A DNA stretch of 64,000 nucleotides from Halobacteriales archaeon QH_7_65_31 (GTDB lineage Archaea > Halobacteriota > Halobacteria > Halobacteriales > Haloarculaceae). The notes under the pieces are model-generated. The model was not told where the DNA came from, searched no databases, and saw only the letters and a program-made list of their open reading frames with translations. Shown piece by piece: positions 12,385 through 64,000 of this stretch. Every line of letters begins with the position of its first letter. Position 1 is the stretch's first letter. The translations under genes and the position numbers were made by a program. The stretch covers positions 10,850 to 74,849 of the forward strand of contig PXQU01000005.1 of assembly GCA_003021785.1 (NCBI GenBank), given 5' to 3'.

Positions 12385-14673
12385 ATGGAAGCTTCTGACG
12401 TGCCTGCGGTCCCCGACTGGCTCCCGGGCCATCTCGAATCCGACGGCGTGGAGTCGCTGTACCCGCCACAGGCGGAGGCGGTCGATGCCGGGGTCACGGA
12501 GGGTTCGTCGCTGGTCGCCTCGATTCCGACCGCCTCGGGAAAGACGCTTATCGCGACCCTCGCCATGCTGTCGGCCGTCGAGCGCGGCGGGAAGGCGCTC
12601 TACATCGTCCCGCTGCGTGCCCTCGCCTCGGAGAAGAGAGCCGAGTTCGAGCAGTTCGAGCAGTACGGCGTCAATATCGGCGTCTCGACGGGGAACTACG
12701 ACTCCGACGGCGAGTGGCTCGCCGAGAAGGATATCATCGTCGCCACCTCCGAGAAGGTGGACTCGCTCGTCCGCAACGGGGCGGGGTGGCTCTCACAGCT
12801 CGACTGCGTCGTCGCCGACGAGGTACATCTCGTCGACGACGCGACCCGCGGCCCGACGCTGGAGGTGACGCTCGCGAAGCTCCGTTCGCGCAACCCCGGA
12901 CTCCAGATCGTCGCGCTCTCGGCGACGATCGGCAACGCCGACGAGCTGGCCGGCTGGCTCGACGCCGAGCTTGTGGACTCCTCGTGGCGACCGATCGATC
13001 TCCGGAAGGGAGTCCACTTCGGACAGGCGCTCCACTTCGACGACGGCAGTCAGGAACAGCTCAGCGTGCAGGGGAGCGAGAAGCCGACCGCCGCGGTCGT
13101 CCGCGACACGCTCCGTGACACCGTCGAGGACGGCGACACGATCGAGGAGGGCGGCTCGACGCTCGTCTTCGTCAACTCCCGGCGGAACGCCGAGGCCGCC
13201 GCCGGGCGACTCGCGACCGTCGTCGGGACCGAGCTGGACGGCGACGAGCTGGCCGCGCTCGCGACGGTCGCCGACGAGATTCGCGACGTGAGCGACACCG
13301 AGACGAGCGACGATCTCGCCGATGCGGTCGAGCAGGGCGCGGCGTTCCACCACGCCGGGCTGTCCCCCGGCCACCGCGAACTCGTGGAGGAGGCGTTCCG
13401 CGACCGGCTCGTCAAATGCGTCTGTGCGACGCCGACGCTCGCCGCGGGCGTCAACACGCCGTCCCGGCGCGTCGTCGTGCGGGACTGGCGGCGCTACTCC
13501 GGTGACGCCGGTGGGATGCAGCCGCTGTCCGTGCTCGAAGTCCACCAGATGATGGGGCGGGCGGGCCGTCCGGGCATGGACCCGTACGGCGAGGCGCTGC
13601 TGCTCGCGAGCAGCCACGACGAGCTCGACGAGCTGTTCGAGCGGTACGTCTGGGCCGACCCCGACCCCGTCCGGTCGAAGCTGGCTGCGGAGCCGGCGAT
13701 GCGGTCCCATCTGCTCGCGACGATTGCGTCCGGATTCGCCGATTCGCGGGAGACGCTGTTATCGTTTCTCGACGGGACGCTCTATGCCGCACAGACCGGC
13801 GAGGAGGAGCGGCTCGAACGCGTGATGGACGAGATGCTCGCGTATCTCGAACGGAACGGGTTCATCGAACGGACCGATAGGGGTGACACCGAGCGGCTGA
13901 CGGCGACGAACCTCGGTCACACCGTCTCTCGGCTCTATCTCGATCCGATGAGCGCCGCCACCATCATCGACGGGATCGCCGACGCCGACGACCCGACCGC
14001 GCTCGGTCTCTACCAGCTCGTCTCGCGCACGCCGGACATGTACCAGCTGTATCTCCGCTCCGGGGAGCGCGAACAGTACACGCAGCTCGCGTACGATCAC
14101 GAGTCGGAGCTGCTGGGCGCACAGCCGTCGGAGTTCGAGGAGTCCCGCTTCGAGGACTGGCTCTCGGCGCTGAAGACGGCCAAGCTGTTGGACGACTGGG
14201 CGGGCGAGACCGACGAGGACCGCATCACCGAACGCTACGGCGTCGGTCCCGGGGACATCCGCGGGAAGGTGGACACCGCGGAGTGGCTGCTCGGGGCGGC
14301 CGAATCACTCGCCGGCGAGCGCGGGTTCGGTAACGTACAGGCGATCCGCGAGGCGAAAAAGCGCGTCCAGTACGGCGTCCGCGAGGAGCTCATCGACCTC
14401 GCAGGCGTGCGAAACGTCGGACGCAAGCGCGCCCGACGACTCTACGAGACGGGTATCGAGAGCCGCGACCAGCTCCGGAACGCGGACAAGTCAGTCGTGC
14501 TCGCCGCGCTCCGCGGGCGTGAACGCACCGCCGAGACGGTGCTCGAACACGCCGGCCACCCCGACCCCGAGATGGACGGCGTGACGCCCGATCCCGACGC
14601 CGAGCCGGTCGTGGTGAGCGGCGAGACCGAGGAGTCAGGCACAGAGGACCAGTCGAGTCTCGGTGACTTCTGA
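12385..14673 (+). CDS. hel308: Ski2-like DNA helicase Hel308
   Basis: Motif I (PTASGKT), DEVH, SAT, the ratchet and C-terminal HhH-like domain are present. I chose the ATG at 12385 ([13 protein letters not shown]) over the track's GTG at 12316 because of the TATA spacing. Confidence 0.92.
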
Positions 14674-51152: not shown

Positions 51153-52661
51153 ATGCCCGACGACGACCCCGACGAGCGACTCGCCGACGCCCTCGAACGC
51201 GTCGCGCACGGGGCGGTCGTCTCGATCCCCAGCACGCTCACCCAGCGGCTACTCACCCTCGCGTTCACCGCGCTCCTGACGAACGGCTTCTCCGCCGGCG
51301 CGTACGGGCTGTTCGTGCTCGCGCGTCGAATCCAGCGGTTCCTCCGCTCGCTCACCCGCAGTTTCACCACCGGATTGAGCCGATACGTCCCGAACACCGA
51401 CACCGACACCGACCGCGACGTCATCGCGACGTTTGCGCTCACGCTCGCCGTCGGGGCCGCGACGGTGTTCGGCATCGCGCTCTATCTCGCTGTTCCCGAA
51501 ATCGGTCGGCTCACCGGCAAGGGAGTGCAGTTCGAGCTGTATCTGCGCGTCTTCGCGCTCGGACTGCCGGCGGCGGTGTGGCTCACCTTCGCCGGCAGCC
51601 TGCTCCAGAGTCTGGAGGAGATCACGCCGATGAATCTCACCCTCCGAATCGGCTTCCCGGCGTTTCAGCTGGTCGCCGCTGGCGTCGGACTCTGGCTGGG
51701 GAGTCTGCTCGCGGTCGCGGTCGGCGTCCTCGTCGTCTCCGCGGTCGGTGGAACCGTCGCACTCGCGTGGCTCGCCCGCGAACGCGGGCTTCGCCCCCGG
51801 TATCGGGGACCGACGGCCAGCTCGCTGCGACGGCGGTATCTCCGCTACACGGCCCCGCTTTTCGCCAGCTCGATCGCGACGACGGTCCAGCGGCTCGGCT
51901 TCTATCCGCTCATCGCCGTCTTCCTCACCAGCACCGCCGGTGCGGTGTTCGCCGTCGGTGAGCTCATCGGCGTGCTCGTGCGACTCCCGCTGTTCGGTAT
52001 CAATCAGCTGATGCCGCCGGTGGCCGCGACGCTGTACGGCGATGAACACCACGAGGCACTCGCGAGGCTGTATCACGCGACCAGCCGGCTCGTCCTCGTC
52101 GGCGTCACCGGGCTCGCGGTCCCGGTCGTCGTCTTCCGGCGAGCGGTGATGGCGCTGTTCGGGCCGACGTTCGTCGAGTACGCGCATCTGCTGCCGGCGT
52201 TCGTCCTCGCGCAGTGGATCGCCTGTGCCGCCGGGAGCGTCGGCATCCTCCTGATGATGACCGACCACCAGCGCGCGATGTTTCTCGTCAACGCGGCGAT
52301 CACGTCGGCGCTCGTCGTCTCGATCCCGCTCACCCGCCGGTACGGGCTCAGCGGCGTCGTCGCCGTCTATCTGCTCATGCTCTCGCTCAACAACACGCTC
52401 GAAGTCGTCGTGTTATGGCGGCTCGAAGATCTCCAGCCTCTCACGCTCGCGCATCTCAAACCCGTCGCCGCCGCCGTCCCGCTCGGCGTGGTCACGGTCG
52501 TCGGCCACCGGCTCGTTCCCGGGCTGGCCGGCGCGCTCGCGGCAACGGTCGTCGGTCTCGTCGTCTACGCGGCCGTCCTGCTGTGGCTCGGCTTCGCGCC
52601 GGCCGAACGACAGCTCGTCGGAACCCTCGCCGACCGCTACCGCACCGTCACGATCGGGTGA
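51153..52661 (+). CDS. Oligosaccharide/polysaccharide flippase (MOP superfamily, Wzx-like)
   Basis: The start is MPDDDPDERLADALE at 51153, giving 502 aa. By eye it has about 12-14 TM segments, with the N-terminal pattern typical of polysaccharide biosynthesis protein families. Confidence 0.8.
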   Translation: MPDDDPDERLADALERVAHGAVVSIPSTLTQRLLTLAFTALLTNGFSAGAYGLFVLARRIQRFLRSLTRSFTTGLSRYVPNTDTDTDRDVIATFALTLAVGAATVFGIALYLAVPEIGRLTGKGVQFELYLRVFALGLPAAVWLTFAGSLLQSLEEITPMNLTLRIGFPAFQLVAAGVGLWLGSLLAVAVGVLVVSAVGGTVALAWLARERGLRPRYRGPTASSLRRRYLRYTAPLFASSIATTVQRLGFYPLIAVFLTSTAGAVFAVGELIGVLVRLPLFGINQLMPPVAATLYGDEHHEALARLYHATSRLVLVGVTGLAVPVVVFRRAVMALFGPTFVEYAHLLPAFVLAQWIACAAGSVGILLMMTDHQRAMFLVNAAITSALVVSIPLTRRYGLSGVVAVYLLMLSLNNTLEVVVLWRLEDLQPLTLAHLKPVAAAVPLGVVTVVGHRLVPGLAGALAATVVGLVVYAAVLLWLGFAPAERQLVGTLADRYRTVTIG

Positions 52662-55458: not shown

Positions 55459-55699
55459 AGCGACTCCCCCAGTTGCAGCTCCGATTCACACTGACACGTC
55501 ACGCCCGGGGACTCATGAGGTTTTGGGCACGTGATCACTACTGTGTATGATACTGATAGTTCACGGTCAGGGTTCGGACGCGACGAACGAATGATCACTC
55601 ACCTCCCGCTCCCTGATTCGAATCCAGAGTGTCCGTTACTCGGATTCGAGTCATCGCGACACGCCTACAGCGGTCGCTCGAAGGTTGCATCCGAGAAAG

Positions 55700-55772
55700 C
55701 GCCCGAGGCGGGATTTGAACCCGCGTCACGACCGTGACAGGGTCGTATGATGGGCCACTACACCACCCGGGC
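55700..55772 (-). tRNA. tRNA-Asp (anticodon GUC)
   Basis: The reverse complement is GCCCGGGTGGTGTAGTGGCCCATCATACGACCCTGTCACGGTCGTGACGCGGGTTCAAATCCCGCCTCGGGCG. It has a 7-bp acceptor stem (one G-U), anticodon loop CTGTCAC, T-arm GCGGG-TTCAAAT-CCCGC and no encoded CCA. Confidence 0.9.
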
Positions 55773-56240: not shown

Positions 56241-57803
56241 ATGGACCAACAGCAACGTCGAAACGTCTCCAGAGAGTACTTCTCCCGCGACCGACTCGCC
56301 GAACACCATTTCCGCTCGTTCAACGCCTTCCTCGGACGGGGGATGCAGCGCGTCGTCGACGAGAAGGAGTCAATCGAGACGGACATCGGTGACAAGGAGG
56401 GACAGGAGCCGGTTCGCGTCGATCTCGCCGACGTGCGCGTCGAGACGCCGCGCGTCCGCGAGGCAGACGGTTCCGAGGAGCTGCTCTACCCGCAGGAGGC
56501 GCGGCTCCGCAACATCACCTACTCCGCGCCGGTGTTCATGGAGATGGATATCGTGCGCGGCGGCGACGAGGAACCAGAGCAGGTGGTCGACACCGCAGAG
56601 ACAAAGATCGGCCGTATGCCGATCATGGTCGGCTCGGAGAAATGCAACATCGCCGGCTTCTCCGACGAGGAGCTGATCGAGATCGGCGAGGACCCTGCCG
56701 ACCCCGGCGGCTACTTCATCGTCAACGGCTCCGAGCGCGTCCTGATGACGAGTGAGGACCTCGCCCCGAACAAGATCCTCGCCGAGTACGATACGAAGTA
56801 CGGTGACGAGATTCAGGTCGCGAAGACGTTCTCACAGCGGCGCGGGTATCGGGCGCTCGTCCTCTGTGAGCGCAACCGCGAGGGACTGCTCGAAGTGTCG
56901 TTCCCGTCGGTGTCCGGCTCGATCGAGTTCGTCACGCTGGTTCGCGCGCTCGGGCTCGAATCCGACGAGGAGATCGTCCACCGCGTGAGCGACGACCCTG
57001 AGATCGTGAAGTTCATGCTGGAGAATCTGGAGGCCGCCGAGGTCGGCTCCACCAACGAGGCGATCGAGACGCTCGGCCAGCGCGTCGCCTCCGGTCAGGG
57101 GAAGAACTACCAGCTCAAACGCGCCAACTACGTCATCGATCGGTATCTCCTCCCGCATCTCCACGAGGAGGGGATCGAGGACGAGGAGGTCCGGATGAAC
57201 AAGGCCGTCTACCTCTGTCGGATGGCCGAGGCGTGTTTCGAACTCGCGCTCGGTCGCCGCGAGTCCGACGACAAGGACCACTACGCCAACAAGCGGCTGA
57301 AGGTCTCCGGCGATCTGATGAAGGACCTGTTCCGTACGGCGCTCAACAAGCTGGCACGCGACGTGAAGTACCAGCTCGAACGCGCGAACATGCGGAACCG
57401 GCAGCTGTCTGTCTCGACGGTCGTCCGCTCGGACGTGCTGACCGAACGGCTCGAACACCCCATCGCGACCGGTAACTGGGTCGGCGGTCGCTCGGGCGTG
57501 AGCCAGCTGGTCGATCGGACCGACTACATGGGCGTGCTCTCGCATCTGCGCCGGCTCCGGTCGCCGCTGTCGCGCTCACAGCCCCACTTCGAGGCGCGTG
57601 ATCTCCACGCGACCCAGTGGGGTCGCATCTGTCCCTCGGAGACGCCCGAAGGGCCAAACTGTGGGCTGGTGAAGAACTTCGCGCAGGCGATGGAGCTGTC
57701 ACAGAACGTCGAGGACGAACGGGAACTGAAGCGAGAACTCGCCTCCATGGGCGTAAACGGCATCCCCGGCATCGAGACCGTGGAGGCCCCCGCAGACGAC
57801 TGA
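56241..57803 (+). CDS. rpoB2: DNA-directed RNA polymerase subunit B''
   Basis: 520 aa, the N-terminal half of the Rpb2 homologue ([22 protein letters not shown]...[28 protein letters not shown]). Confidence 0.95.
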
Positions 57804-57804
57804 T

Positions 57805-59631
57805 ATGAGTAGCCAACGAGAATCCAAAGTGTACGTCAACGGGTCGCTCATCGGGACCCACCCACAGCCGCACGAGCTCGCGAACAACGTCAGAGAGGCC
57901 CGCCGCCGCGGCGAGGTCTCCGAGATGGTCAACGTCTCCGTCAAGGAGGAGACCAACGAGATCATCATCAACGCCGACGCCGGGCGCGCGCGCCGCCCGC
58001 TGTTCGTCATCGAGAACGGCGAGCCGCTCGTCTCCGACGAGGAGCTGGAGGCCGTCGAGGCGGGCGAGCTCGACTTCGACGATCTCGTCGACCGCGGCTA
58101 CATCGAGTACATCGACGCCGAGGAAGAGGAGGACATCCTCGTCGCCGTCGAGAGCGACGAGGTCACCGACGACCACACGCATCTCGAAGTCGATCCGCAG
58201 CTCATCTTCGGTATCGGTGCGGGAATGATTCCGTACCCCGAGCACAACGCCTCGCCCCGGATCACGATGGGATCGGGGATGATCAAGCAGTCGCTCGGGC
58301 TTCCGTCGGCGAACTACCGCATCCGACCGGACACCCGCCAACATCTGCTGCATTACCCGCAGCTGTCGCTCGTCAAGACGCAGACGACCGAGCAGATCGG
58401 CTACGACGACCGCCCCGCCGCCCAGAACTTCGTCGTCGCCGTCATGTCCTACGAGGGGTTCAACATCGAGGACGCGCTCGTTCTCAACGGCGGCTCCGTC
58501 GACCGCGCGCTCGCCCGGTCGCATTTCTTTCGCACCTACGAGGGCGAAGAGCGCCGGTATCCCGGCGGTCAGGAGGACCGCTTCGAGCGCCCCGACGAGG
58601 ACGTACGCGGCGCGCGCGGCGAGGACGCCTACACGCATCTCGACGACGACGGGCTCGTCAACCCGGAGACGCAGGTCGGAGAGAACGACGTGCTACTCGG
58701 GAAGACCTCGCCGCCGCGCTTCCTCGAAGAGCCGGACGATATGGGCGGCCTCTCACCGCAGAAGCGCCGCGAGACCTCAGTTACCATGCGCTCGGGCGAG
58801 TCGGGCGTCGTGGACACCGTGACGCTGATGGAGGGAGAAGACGGTTCGAAGCTCTCGAAGGTCAGCGTGCGCGACGAACGGATCCCCGAACTCGGGGACA
58901 AGTTCGCGTCTCGCCACGGCCAGAAGGGCGTCGTCGGCCACATCGCGCCACAGGAGGACATGCCGTTCACGCAGGACGGCGTCGTTCCGGACCTCATCGT
59001 GAACCCGCACGCACTGCCGTCGCGGATGACCGTCGGTCACATCCTGGAGATGCTCGGCGGCAAGGTCGGCTCGCTAGAGGGTCGCCGCGTCGACGGGACC
59101 GCCTTCACCGGCGAGGACGAGGAGGACCTCCGCGACACGCTCGTCGAGGACGGGTTCAAGTCCAACGGGAAGGAGGTCATGTACTCGGGCGTGACGGGCG
59201 AGAAGATCGAGGCCGAGATTTTCGTCGGCGTCATCTTCTACCAGAAGCTCTACCACATGGTCTCGAACAAGATTCACGCCCGTTCGCGTGGGCCGGTGCA
59301 GGTGCTCACGCGCCAGCCGACGGAGGGGCGCGCTCGCGAGGGCGGACTCCGCGTCGGCGAGATGGAACGGGACGTGCTCATCGGACACGGCGCGGCGATG
59401 GCGCTCAAGGAGCGCCTGCTCGATGAGTCCGACCGCGAGTTCATCCACGTCTGCGGCAACTGCGGGATGAGCGCGGTCGAGAACGTCGAGCAACGCCGCG
59501 TCTACTGTCCGAACTGCGACGAGGAGACCGACGTTCACGAGGTCGAGATGAGCTACGCGTTCAAGCTCCTGCTCGACGAGATGAAGGCGCTGGGTATCGC
59601 ACCGCGGATCGAACTCACGGAGGCTGTATAA
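57805..59631 (+). CDS. rpoB1: DNA-directed RNA polymerase subunit B'
   Basis: 608 aa, the C-terminal half of the Rpb2 homologue ([19 protein letters not shown], and the C-terminal Zn ribbon CGNCGM...CPNC). Confidence 0.95.
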
Positions 59632-59632
59632 C

Positions 59633-62590
59633 ATGAGCACAGGACAAACACCGAAGCAGATCGGGTCACTCAGCTTCGGGCTGATGGACCCCGAGGAGTA
59701 CCGCGAGATGTCGGCCACGAAGGTCATCACGGCCGACACCTACGACGACGACGGCTTCCCCATCGACATGGGGCTGATGGACCCGCGACTGGGCGTCATC
59801 GATCCCGGGCTCGAATGCAAGACCTGCGGGAAACACTCCGGCTCGTGTAACGGCCACTTCGGCCACATCGAGCTGGCCGCGCCGGTCATCCACGTCGGGT
59901 TCCAGAAGCTCATCCGTCGGCTGCTCCGCGGAACCTGTCGTGAGTGTTCGCGACTCCTGCTCACCGAGGAGGAGGCCGACGAGTTCCGCGACCGGCTCGA
60001 CAAGACCCGCAGTCTGGGCGAGGACCTCGGTGACGTGACGAAAGCGGCCATCCGCCGCGCGCGAAAGGCGTCGAACTGCCCGCACTGCGGCGAGACGCAG
60101 TACGACATCCAACACGAGAAGCCGACGACCTACTACGAGGTGCAGGACGTGCTCTCGGCGGAGTACTCCGAGCGGATCGCCGCCGCGATGGAGGGCCGTC
60201 CGGTCGGCGACGAGGAGGAGGGCGAGGTCGACCGCGAGCCGATGGGACCGATGGAGCTCGCCGAGGAGACCGGCATCGACAGCTCCCGGATTCAGGAGAT
60301 CCTCTCCAGCGAGTTCCGTCCGACCGAGGAGGACCGCGAATCCCTCGAACAGGCGCTCGACGTCGATCTCACCGAGGAGGACATGAACAAGCTGATGGCC
60401 TCCGACATCCGCGACTGGTTCGAGGACATCCCGGATCGCGACATCGAGACGCTCGGCATCGACGCCGACAAGTCCCGACCGGAGTGGATCATCCTGACCG
60501 TTCTGCCGGTTCCGCCGGTGACGGCGCGACCGTCGATCACGCTCGATAACGGCCAGCGCTCCGAGGACGATCTCACCCACAAGCTGGTGGACATCATCCG
60601 CATCAATCAGCGGTTCATGGAGAACCGCGAGGCCGGTGCGCCCCAGCTCATCATCGAGGACCTGTGGGAGCTGCTCCAGTACCACGTCACGACGTTCATG
60701 GACAACGAGATCTCGGGGACGCCGCCGGCACGCCACCGGTCGGGTCGCCCGCTCAAGACGCTCTCGCAGCGACTGAAGGGCAAAGAGGGTCGGTTCCGCG
60801 GCTCGCTGTCCGGCAAGCGCGTCAACTTCTCCGCCCGGACGGTCATCAGCCCGGACCCGACGCTCTCGCTCAACGAGGTCGGCGTCCCCGACCGGGTCGC
60901 CAGCGAGATGACACAGACGATGAACGTGAACGCGCGGAACCTGCAGGACGCGCGCCGCTACGTCGCCAACGGGCCGGAGACGCACCCGGGTGCGAACTAC
61001 GTTCGCCGTCCGGACGGTCGCCGGCTGAAGGTAACCGAGAAGAACTGCGAGGAGCTGGCCGAGAAGGTCGATCCCGGCTGGGAGGTGTCGCGTCACCTCA
61101 TCGACGGCGACGTCGTCATCTTCAACCGGCAGCCGTCGCTCCACCGGATGTCGATCATGGCTCACGAGGTCGTGGTGATGCCGTACAAGACGTTCCGGCT
61201 CAACACCGTCGTCTGTCCGCCGTACAACGCTGACTTCGACGGCGACGAGATGAATATGCACGCGCTGCAGAACGAGGAGGCCCGCGCCGAGGCGCGCGTC
61301 CTCATGCGCGTTCAGGAACAGATCCTCTCCCCGCGCTTCGGTGAGAACATCATCGGGGCCATTCAGGACCACATCTCGGGGATGTATCTACTCACCCACG
61401 ACAACCCGCAGTTCAACGAGACGCAGGCGCTCGATCTGCTGCGTGCGACGAGCGTCGAGGGGCTTCCGGAGCCGGACGGGACCGACGACGACGGCATCGA
61501 CTACTGGACCGGTCGCTCCGTCTTCTCGGAGCTGCTGCCGGACGATCTCAACATGGAGTTCGAGGGGACCCTCGGCGAGCCGGTCGTCATCGAGGACGGC
61601 CAGCTCGTGGAAGGGACCATCGCCGAGGACGAGGTCGGCGAGTTCGGCGGCGAGATCGTCGACACCGTCACCAAGGTGTACGGCAACACCCGCTCGCGCG
61701 TGTTCATCAACGAGGTTGCCACGCTCGCGATGCGTTCGATCATGCATTTCGGCATTTCGGTCGGCATCGACGACGAGTCGGTCGACAGCGAGGCCGAAGA
61801 CCGCATTCAGGAGGCCATCGACAGCGCCTACGAGCGGGTGCAAGAACTCATCGAGACGTACGAGACGGGCGAGCTGGAGTCGCTGCCCGGTCGAACGACC
61901 GACGAGACGCTGGAGATGAAGGTCATGCAGACGCTCGGTCGCGCGCGCGACTCGGCGGGTGACATCGCCGACGAGCGACTCGACGAGGACAACCCGGCGG
62001 TCGTGATGGCTCGCTCGGGCGCGCGTGCCTCGATGCTGAATCTCACGCAGATGTCGGCCTGTGTCGGCCAGCAGGCCGTCCGCGGCGAGCGGATCAACCG
62101 CGGCTACGAGGACCGCACGCTCAGCCACTACAAGAAGAACGATCTCTCCGCCGACGCACACGGCTTCGTGGAGTCGTCGTACCGACAGGGGCTCAACCCA
62201 CAGGAGTTCTTCTTCCACGCGATGGGTGGCCGCGAGGGGCTCGTCGATACGGCGGTTCGGACCTCGAAGTCCGGCTATCTCCAGCGCCGGCTCATCAACG
62301 CGCTCTCGGAGCTGGAGTCCCAGTACGACGGCACGGTCCGGGACACCTCGGACACGGTCGTTCAGTTCGAGTTCGGCGAGGACGGAACCTCGACCACGCA
62401 GGTCGCGCACGACGAGGAGAACCCGATCGAGGTCGAGGACATCGCGGCCCGCGTGATGAACGCCGAGTTCGCCGACGAGGCGGAACGCGAGTCGTTCCTC
62501 AAGGGCGACACGCTCCAGACGAACCTCTCGGAGCATCAGGACACGTGGCGCACTGGCGGAGCCGTCCCGGAGGTGGAGTCGGATGACTGA
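59633..62590 (+). CDS. rpoA1: DNA-directed RNA polymerase subunit A'
   Basis: 985 aa. It has Zn motifs (CKTCG...C, CPHCG), the catalytic [10 protein letters not shown] and the bridge-helix region. Confidence 0.95.
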
Positions 62591-64000
62591 CTCCGAGATC
62601 GAGGCGGTCGTCGAGGCAACGGAGCTGCCGAAGCGACTCCGCGAGGAGGTGTACGACGCCGTCGCGGAGCACAACGCGAGCGCCGACGAGGCCGAAGACA
62701 TCGCGACGGCGGTCGAGTCACGCTATCTCGCGACCCGGCTCGATCCGCTCGATCCCGTCGGTACGGTCTCGGCACAGTCGATCGGGGAGCCGGGGACGCA
62801 GATGAGCGTCCCGGCAGACGAGCGTGTCGTCGTCCGCCGCGACGGTGAGACCGAGGTGACGGAGATTGGTTCGTTCGTGGACTCGCTCATGCGCTCTCGG
62901 GAGACCAGAACGGCAGGCGATCACGAGGTCGCCCTCGCGCCCGACGGGGTGTCCGTACCGAGTCTCGGCGACGACGAGCGCGTCGAGTGGAACAGCGTCG
63001 AGGAGGTGAGCCGCCACGAGACGCCCGATGAGCTGCTCGAGTTCGAGCTGGAGTCGGGCCGCTCGATCCGCGCGACGAAGGCACACTCCTTCGTCACCCG
63101 CCGCGACAACGAGATCGTCCCGGTCGCCGGCGAGGAACTCGACGCAGGTGACTGGCTCCCGGTCGTCGCCGATCTCGACGCGACGGACGCGTCCGAGACG
63201 GTCGACCTCCGCCCACGACTCCCCGCCGAGGAGTTCTGGTTCACGTCGACGCTGACCGACGGCGGAACGGCGACGTATCCGGCGGGCGAAGCGCAGGTCG
63301 CGAACAAGCGAGCCGCGCTCGACGCCGACGACATCGAAGCCGGCTACGTCTATCCCGTCGGAGGAACCGTCGGACTTCCCGAACAGCTCCCGCTCGACGA
63401 GACGACCGGCTTCTTCATCGGCGCGTTCCTGGCCGAAGGAAACGCGACCGACCACTACGTCTCGATCTCGAACGTCGACGAGACGTTCCAAGAGCGGGTC
63501 CGAGCGTTCGCCGAGCGGTTCGATCTCTCGGTCAACGAGTACGAGAACACGAGCGGCTTCGCCGACGGCTACGATCTCCGTCTCAACGGGACCGTCCTCG
63601 CGGCGTTCCTCCGTGCGACCTGCACGGACGCGGGCGAGAAGGTCCTTCCCGGATTCGCCGTCGGTGCGCCGGACGCGTTCGTTCGCGCGCTGCTTCGCGG
63701 CTACTTCAGCGGTGACGGTAACGTCGCGGCGAACGCCGTCCGGTCGAGCTCCGTCAGCGACCGCCTGACCGGCGGCATCGCGCTCCTGCTCGCTCGCGTG
63801 GGGATTCACGCGACCCTCGGGGAGACCGACGGCTCTCGAACGCTTCGAATCCCGGCAAAACACGTCGAACGGTTCGACGACCGCGTCGGCATGGTCGGGG
63901 AGCGCGGGACGGAGCTCGCTACCCTCGCGGCGTCGGTCGACACCGACGGCCCGGACGCGACGGACCAGATACCGAACTTCGGCGACGCGGTCGACTCCGT
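62583..64000 (+). CDS. rpoA2: DNA-directed RNA polymerase subunit A'' (5' part, interrupted by an intein; continues beyond the window)
   Basis: ATG 62583 overlaps the rpoA1 stop by 8 nt. Codons 1-74 end in [13 protein letters not shown]. The frame stays open to the window edge, which is why it is absent from the ORF track. Confidence 0.9.
62805..64000 (+). mobile_element. Intein with LAGLIDADG homing endonuclease inserted in rpoA2 (partial, at least 398 codons in the window)
   Basis: Block A is [18 protein letters not shown] (Ser1) and block B is RATKAHSF. The LAGLIDADG motifs are [13 protein letters not shown] (63408-63446) and [12 protein letters not shown] (63690-63725). Blocks F and G are expected downstream of the window. 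Confidence 0.85.

Follow-up and report, generated by a model that had tools for sequence, protein, structure and literature searches.

A full-size copy of the haloarchaeal rpolA intein, with a predicted LAGLIDADG homing endonuclease, in rpoA'' of Halobacteriales archaeon QH_7_65_31

In a 64,000-nucleotide (nt) stretch of Halobacteriales archaeon QH_7_65_31 (contig PXQU01000005.1; hereafter the window), the gene for RNA polymerase (RNAP) subunit A'', rpoA'', is interrupted in frame at its GEPGTQM/TMNTFHYAG site by a segment of 491 amino acids (aa). This segment is almost certainly a canonical class 1 intein in which a double-motif LAGLIDADG homing endonuclease is nested, and it would be expected to splice itself out of its host protein and to cleave intein-free copies of the gene. 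It is not new, but rather a full-size copy of the known, catalogued haloarchaeal rpolA (rPol A'') allele. Its anatomy, junctions, insertion site, predicted fold, patchy distribution, and signature of purifying selection all fit this reading, and our data contradict it nowhere.

The window ends within the gene. A plus-strand frame from ATG 62583 remains free of stops for 472 codons through position 64000, and its start overlaps the rpoA' stop by 8 nt (ATGACTGA). The first-pass annotation, made from the sequence alone, had described this open frame and its overlap, and both translation and the open reading frame (ORF) list bore it out. It had likewise read the first 74 codons as the N-terminus of RpoA''. 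These codons do end in the conserved GEPGTQM, after which the codon for S75 begins at nt 62805, and every peptide that it had quoted for intein block A (with Ser as residue 1), block B (TxxH), and two LAGLIDADG motifs was present where it had been placed. The features of this region are as follows.

59633-62590, plus strand: rpoA' (RNAP subunit A', 985 aa), from the ORF list, with Pfam Rpb1 domains 1-5 and an NCBIfam NF006336 match of 1512 bits.
62583-62804, plus strand: rpoA'' N-extein, codons 1-74, from translation, TIGR02389 and PF04998 matches, and alignment to intein-free orthologues.
62805-63206, plus strand: N-terminal splicing (Hint) region of the intein, intein residues 1-134, with a TIGR01445 match on RpoA'' frame residues 76-172 and a beta-rich model at a predicted local distance difference test score (pLDDT) of ~90.
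62805-62807, plus strand: block A Ser1, from translation.
63075-63086, plus strand: block B TKAH, intein residues 91-94, with T91 and H94 invariant in 20 homologues.
63207-63383, plus strand: linker between Hint region and endonuclease, intein residues 135-193, predicted at low confidence (pLDDT <50 for residues 145-188).
63384-63974, plus strand: LAGLIDADG homing-endonuclease core, intein residues 194-390, from two PF14528 stretches (2.1e-18), the structural model, Foldseek, and the ratio of non-synonymous to synonymous substitution rates (dN/dS).
63408-63443, plus strand: LAGLIDADG motif 1 with catalytic E211, from translation and PF14528.
63636-63650, plus strand: block D Lys (K279) in EKVLP, a conserved column.
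63690-63722, plus strand: LAGLIDADG motif 2 (LLRGYFSGD304GN) with catalytic D304, from translation and PF14528.
63744-63767, plus strand: block H, SSSVSDRL.
63975-64000, plus strand: first part of the endonuclease's C-terminal helical extension, truncated by the window edge, from comparison with contig L007 (introduced below).

The window therefore covers intein residues 1-398 of 491, with the endonuclease core wholly inside, and position 64000 cuts off the rest of the C-terminal helical region as well as splicing blocks F and G. An exact-sequence search with the RpoB' protein of the window returned four contigs (L006-L009), while the same kind of search with its RpoA' protein had nothing on record. 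L009 ends inside rpoA', leaving L006, L007, and L008 as the contigs that reach rpoA''. We completed the gene from L007 (ENA ERZ27230149), which equals the window nucleotide for nucleotide over 62583-64000 and matches its last 12 kb at 99.95% identity, with six mismatches. The L007 precursor is 889 aa long and consists of an N-extein (residues 1-74), the intein (75-565, 491 aa), and a C-extein (566-889), so that the mature protein would have 398 aa. Computed from L007, the intein occupies window-equivalent nt 62805-64277 and the gene ends at window-equivalent 65252.

The first-pass annotation had expected a terminal His-Asn pair, a nucleophilic residue, and the RpoA'' C-extein downstream of the window, and L007 supplies all three. 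Its intein carries a block F Asp (YVYD472LSV) and ends in GVVTHN, with penultimate H490 and terminal N491, and these are followed by Thr+1 (T566), with which the C-extein TMNTFHYAGV begins. In sequence, the intein terminus reads ...YVYDLSVAGLETFTTAEGVVTHN and continues into TMNTFHYAGVAEIDV, and the intein/C-extein junction expected past position 64000 is ...GTCACTCACAAC followed by ACGATGAAC.

The junctions in L006 and L008, which belong to the same population (~98.3% nt identity), are as in L007. They are also identical in five more distant genomes, namely Halobaculum gomorrense, Halobaculum sp. EA56, Halorubrum sp. 48-1-W, Halarchaeum acidiphilum, and one metagenome-assembled genome (MAG; L002), and the insertion site is the same in all eight loci (L001-L008). 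Because the window and its closest relatives are metagenome assemblies, and L008 has a local oddity in rpoA', we considered whether assembly or binning could have fused part of rpoA'' with an intein gene unrelated to it. This is hardly credible when the same architecture and junctions recur in three independent population assemblies, in the genomes of four isolates (two of Halobaculum and one each of Halorubrum and Halarchaeum), and in a further MAG, and we rejected an artefact on those grounds.

Profile matches agree with this anatomy and lie far above chance. Besides LAGLIDADG_3 (PF14528), Pfam placed Intein_splicing (1.9e-08) on the window frame and RNA_pol_Rpb1_5 on its residues 57-75. The NCBIfam intein_Nterm alignment (TIGR01445, 6.7e-11) begins with model position 2 at residue 76, and Ser75 is therefore intein residue 1. 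Against NF011491, a curated 860-position model of RpoA'' with its intein, the window fragment matched model positions 2-444 (2.1e-176, 588.5 bits), falling below the 783-bit cut-off only because it is truncated. The full L007 precursor matched this model end to end, at 1279.5 bits over positions 2-851 of 860.

To view the element as a whole, we modelled the 491-aa intein (L007 sequence) with AlphaFold2 from a 20-row alignment, obtaining a mean pLDDT of 85 and a predicted TM-score (pTM) of 0.86, with only linker residues 145-188 at low confidence. In this model, residues 1-134 and 452-490 are beta-rich and make up the Hint domain, residues 199-377 fold into two alpha-beta-beta-alpha-beta-beta-alpha halves, each headed by a LAGLIDADG helix, and residues 393-448 form an additional helical region. 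The predicted Hint fold accompanies the other hallmarks of class 1, which are Ser1 after a conserved extein residue, TxxH, the block F Asp with His, Asn, and Thr+1, and an insertion absent from orthologues. Those of a homing endonuclease also appear, namely a pseudo-dimeric predicted fold and two LAGLIDADG helices, both with a catalytic acid at the end.

Foldseek searches of the PDB with this model returned intein homing endonucleases as top matches, led by PI-PkoII (the Thermococcus kodakarensis Pol-2 intein, 2cw7; E 8e-28, query TM-score [TMq] 0.71) and TliVMA (7qss; TMq 0.72, target TM-score [TMt] 0.81) and including PhoVMA, PI-PfuI (1dq3), and PI-SceI. PI-PkoII, TliVMA, and PI-PfuI resemble our element in that a double-motif LAGLIDADG endonuclease is nested in their Hint splicing domain, together with an additional DNA-binding region (Foldseek E 8e-28 to 8e-19, TMq 0.63-0.72), yet they share only 13-20% identity with it and sit in other host genes at other insertion sites. 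Moreover, the VMA entries among these solved structures are C1A constructs, so that those inteins at least begin with Cys, whereas the rpoA'' intein uses the oxygen nucleophiles Ser1 and Thr+1. I-DmoI matched the endonuclease core (TMt ~0.7), and the Hint matches included the mini-inteins 5o9i, 4e2t, and 2lcj.

By sequence (phmmer), PI-PkoII was found at 1.6e-24 and TFIIB mini-inteins at ~1e-19 (8.6e-20). For the N-terminal splicing region (62805-63206), the closest relatives of solved structure are the Methanocaldococcus TFIIB mini-inteins (5o9j, 5o9i), with 31-33% identity and a root-mean-square deviation of 1.5 Å over ~122 residues. They likewise reside in a core transcription protein, but their crystallised forms are endonuclease-less and their extein and insertion site differ. 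This likeness hints that the TFIIB and rpoA'' inteins, in two genes of the transcription machinery, share ancestry. Another relative is the rPol A'' intein of M. jannaschii.

Intein-free RpoA'' homologues had been named as a test of whether the segment might be an ordinary domain, and they lack it. Using the in-silico spliced 398-aa extein as query, we found that 119 of the best 120 matches are RpoA'' proteins without an intein, 391-415 aa in length. The nearest of these are 95, 94, and 92% identical and each exactly 398 aa long, with Halosegnis marinus at 88%, and alignment against intein-free orthologues opens a clean gap of 491 residues after M74 and before T. The same holds in DNA, where an empty allele (L010) shares 90.1% identity with the L007 coding sequence once spliced. 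At its site, GAGCCGGGGACGCAGATG directly followed by ACGATGAACAC agrees with the occupied allele, its flanks joined, over 18 nt upstream and 11 nt downstream, and the empty target around the junction reads TCCATCGGTGAGCCGGGGACGCAGATG and then ACGATGAACACGTTCCACTACGCG. Solved archaeal A'' subunits (Thermococcus 4qiw_C, Sulfolobus 2pmz, 3hkz, and others) run unbroken through ...GEPSTQMTLNTFHYAGV..., with TQMTLNTFHYAG uninterrupted. Inteins typically occupy catalytic, highly conserved motifs, and here the extein relatives and structures share GTQM-T[ML]NTFHYAG.

This motif belongs to the trigger loop, in which Q80, L83, and H87 of Pyrococcus furiosus (Pfu) A'' correspond to Q1078, L1081, and H1085 of Rpb1, and in which H87A and trigger-loop deletions abolished promoter-dependent transcription (PMC3737540). 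On this mapping, RpoA'' residue 73 is the counterpart of Pfu Q80, the residue that senses the 2'-OH. The insertion thereby falls between Pfu A'' M81 and T82 (Rpb1 M1079 and T1080), in the N-terminal arm of the loop, where its 491 residues separate the Gln sensing the 2'-OH from the Met and His residues that contact the nucleoside triphosphate. Since the insert lies within the trigger loop and an unspliced precursor would be left without a working one, splicing should be obligatory for RNAP activity. Our literature search returned no text discussing such a placement of an intein. The abstracts and the passage checked held mostly incidental mentions, for example of residue numbering in intein-free M. 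jannaschii subunits.

A large segment encoded in this part of the enzyme could, in principle, be a permanent, lineage-specific domain that stays in the mature subunit. Some bacterial RNAP trigger loops tolerate large insertions, such as SI3 in the E. coli beta' subunit, and splicing is itself deduced here from sequence and model. SI3 is similar in that it too is a large stretch of polypeptide encoded where the largest RNAP subunit has its trigger loop. However, SI3 is permanent, has another fold and no splicing residues, and sits at the loop tip, whereas the rpoA'' element lies between the catalytic Q and M/H, has every intein hallmark, and is missing from near-identical orthologues. We consider an unspliced, SI3-like domain extremely improbable and rejected it given the full set of splicing residues (Ser1, TxxH, block F Asp, His-Asn, and Thr+1), the predicted Hint and LAGLIDADG folds, and the orthologues at 92-95% identity without the segment.

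We instead favor excision by the class 1 scheme (PMC10663303). After translation of the 889-aa precursor, the Ser1 side chain would attack the M74 carbonyl in an N-to-O acyl shift at M74-S75, assisted by T91 and H94 of block B and D472 of block F. Thr+1 would then attack the resulting ester in a transesterification, and cyclisation of Asn491, aided by His490, would free the intein. A final O-to-N shift would restore the peptide bond, yielding a 398-aa RpoA'' with an intact trigger loop and the junction peptide ...GEPGTQMTMNTFHYAGV.... The first-pass annotation had called a Ser1 nucleophile less common than Cys1, and we agree; in this allele, the Ser1/Thr+1 pair, with oxygen nucleophiles only, is conserved throughout. 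Once freed, the intein may cut intein-free rpoA'' at the joined extein site (for example, GAGCCGGGGACGCAGATG plus ACGATGAACAC), and recombinational repair off the occupied allele would copy the intein in. This sequence-specific cleavage and homing is supported indirectly, by dN/dS, by the intact empty site in a relative, and by patchy distribution.

The endonuclease had initially been judged to look intact, and this impression was upheld by the presence of E211, D304, and the block D Lys, the predicted LAGLIDADG fold, and a dN/dS of ~0.2. Across 20 homologues, S1, T91, H94, E211, G212, K279, D304, D472, H490, and N491 are invariant or nearly so. By the Nei-Gojobori method on a codon alignment with genus-level relatives, dN/dS was 0.18-0.27 in the endonuclease core and 0.24-0.35 in the exteins, while the intein differences within the population comprise 16-19 synonymous and 4-5 non-synonymous changes. 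These low ratios indicate that purifying selection acts on the endonuclease, and no less strongly than on variable stretches of the host protein. The intein is patchily distributed, and the closest extein relatives lack it. Moreover, the closest inteins are found in Halobaculum (77-78% aa identity), and the exteins are equidistant from all carriers (75-76%). Taken together, this points to a homing endonuclease that has been maintained and is probably functional, with at least one horizontal gain or loss, and it may be active or recently active, as had been suggested at the outset.

Several points limit this account. The last 93 intein residues and the C-extein were read from L007, outside the window itself. 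The nearest sampled intein, that of Halobaculum, is distant (synonymous divergence, dS, ~0.6), and a search for foreign composition found no anomaly in the intein (GC 68.2%; GC at third codon positions [GC3] 85.5%, compared to 86-90% GC3 in neighbouring genes), so no recent invasion event is visible. A co-conversion tract was also sought by comparing the junction with the empty allele L010, but the 3-5 differences per 60 nt near the junction (0-10 elsewhere) were indistinguishable from the strong conservation of the motif. In addition, all three sampled strains of the population are intein-positive, and homing may thus currently be without empty targets inside it.

Some of these observations also suit an intein that still splices but whose endonuclease is already inactive, caught after fixation and before decay to a mini-intein. 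With all three sampled strains occupied, no local targets are left, and the composition is fully ameliorated. Decay is also the usual fate at this site, as many haloarchaea carry mini-inteins there in RpoA'' proteins of ~600 aa. Among the best 120 matches to the window fragment, ~85 are such haloarchaeal proteins with an endonuclease-less mini-intein at the same M/T site (for example, P0042, P0057, P0110, P0114, and P0043). Each mini-intein has ~200 aa and keeps roughly intein residues 1-150 and 450-491. The linker of the window intein holds a TLTDGG motif, and in alignment the mini-intein relatives (P0042, P0114) keep TLTDGG right before their deletion, which begins just past this TLTDGG-like linker motif and stops about 40 residues short of block F. 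Late in the homing cycle, such a form is what one would expect. Still, both catalytic acids and the block D Lys of the window copy are present and conserved, its core dN/dS is equal to or below that of the exteins, its fold is predicted with confidence, and its nearest relatives offer empty, intact target sites. We therefore view an already inactive endonuclease as possible but on the unlikely side, and a maintained, functional endonuclease as the better reading.

Inteins at this site have been recorded before. Soucy et al. (2014; PMC4071816) surveyed 118 Halobacteria and counted "rpolA" as one of 24 intein alleles, in 10 genomes, not flagged as new and only in Halobacteria, and Novikova et al. 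(PMC4760082) counted 14 intein-containing archaeal RNA polymerase proteins. NCBI keeps an equivalog model for intein-containing RpoA'' (NF011491, PRK14898), and GenBank holds a protein of the same 90%-identity cluster, labelled RpoA''. The window intein shares with this allele its host gene, Ser1, Thr+1, and the GEPGTQM/T site, which was found in every haloarchaeal relative fetched, and it is 67-78% identical to the Halobaculum, Halorubrum, and Halarchaeum copies. There is no qualitative difference; the window copy simply comes from a lineage that is Halosegnis-like (Natronomonadaceae-like) and has intein-free nearest relatives. By contrast with the restriction to Halobacteria in the 2014 survey, we found full-size homologous inteins at the same RpoA'' site in MAGs of Micrarchaeota (DPANN), with 39-43% identity, Ser1, and HN/TMRTFHYAGV (P0026-P0029, P0038, and P0039).

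As one more copy of a catalogued allele, in a protein that standard pipelines already label RpoA'', the element matters little. It is of modest use in flagging an ORF missed by a gene track bounded by the window. Its presence here and absence from relatives with 92-95% identical exteins also make it usable as a presence/absence marker of gene flow, as Soucy et al. proposed. Finally, the trigger-loop position offers a clean natural case for asking whether splicing gates RNAP activity. Among haloarchaeal inteins, some require high salt for splicing (Reitter et al. 2016, as cited in PMC10663303). Because the split trigger loop would leave RNAP active only once spliced, the rpoA'' intein and the widespread mini-inteins at its site might serve as a post-translational switch by which salt gates transcription capacity. 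The allele might also move between Halobacteria and DPANN Micrarchaeota, which share the site (~40% intein identity). These ideas are speculative, and we think them improbable.

The interrupted gene closes a conserved archaeal RNAP operon, rpoH-rpoB''-rpoB'-rpoA'-rpoA''. According to the ORF list and Pfam, rpoB'' (56241-57803) and rpoB' (57805-59631) lie upstream of rpoA', and the placement of rpoH further upstream was judged from related contigs. Packing is tight, with each start one base past the preceding stop at rpoB''/rpoB' (57803/57805) and rpoB'/rpoA' (59631/59633). This spacing and the 8-nt rpoA'/rpoA'' overlap are consistent with translational coupling. When the whole window was scanned by regex in all six frames, no further intein or LAGLIDADG signature was convincing.

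Beyond the operon, tRNA-Asp(GTC) adjoins it upstream on the opposite strand (55699-55772, minus); ARAGORN and Rfam detected no other RNA gene in the 64-kb window. A protein of ~502 aa (window ~51153-52661, plus strand), with no Pfam match on record, is kept in all four related contigs (3238-4749 in L006-L009; 3349-4857 in L007) and neighbours a DUF7382 gene and a gene for a faintly HerA/DUF87-like ATPase. On the related contigs, nusA, 3' of rpoA'', is split into two ORFs in L006 (17519-18252), while in L007 it is a single 268-aa gene. In L008, a 99-nt inverted duplicate (14104-14203) breaks rpoA' at its 3' end, and the gene was left uncalled. The L006 split and the L008 duplicate are probably MAG assembly errors rather than biology of the window.

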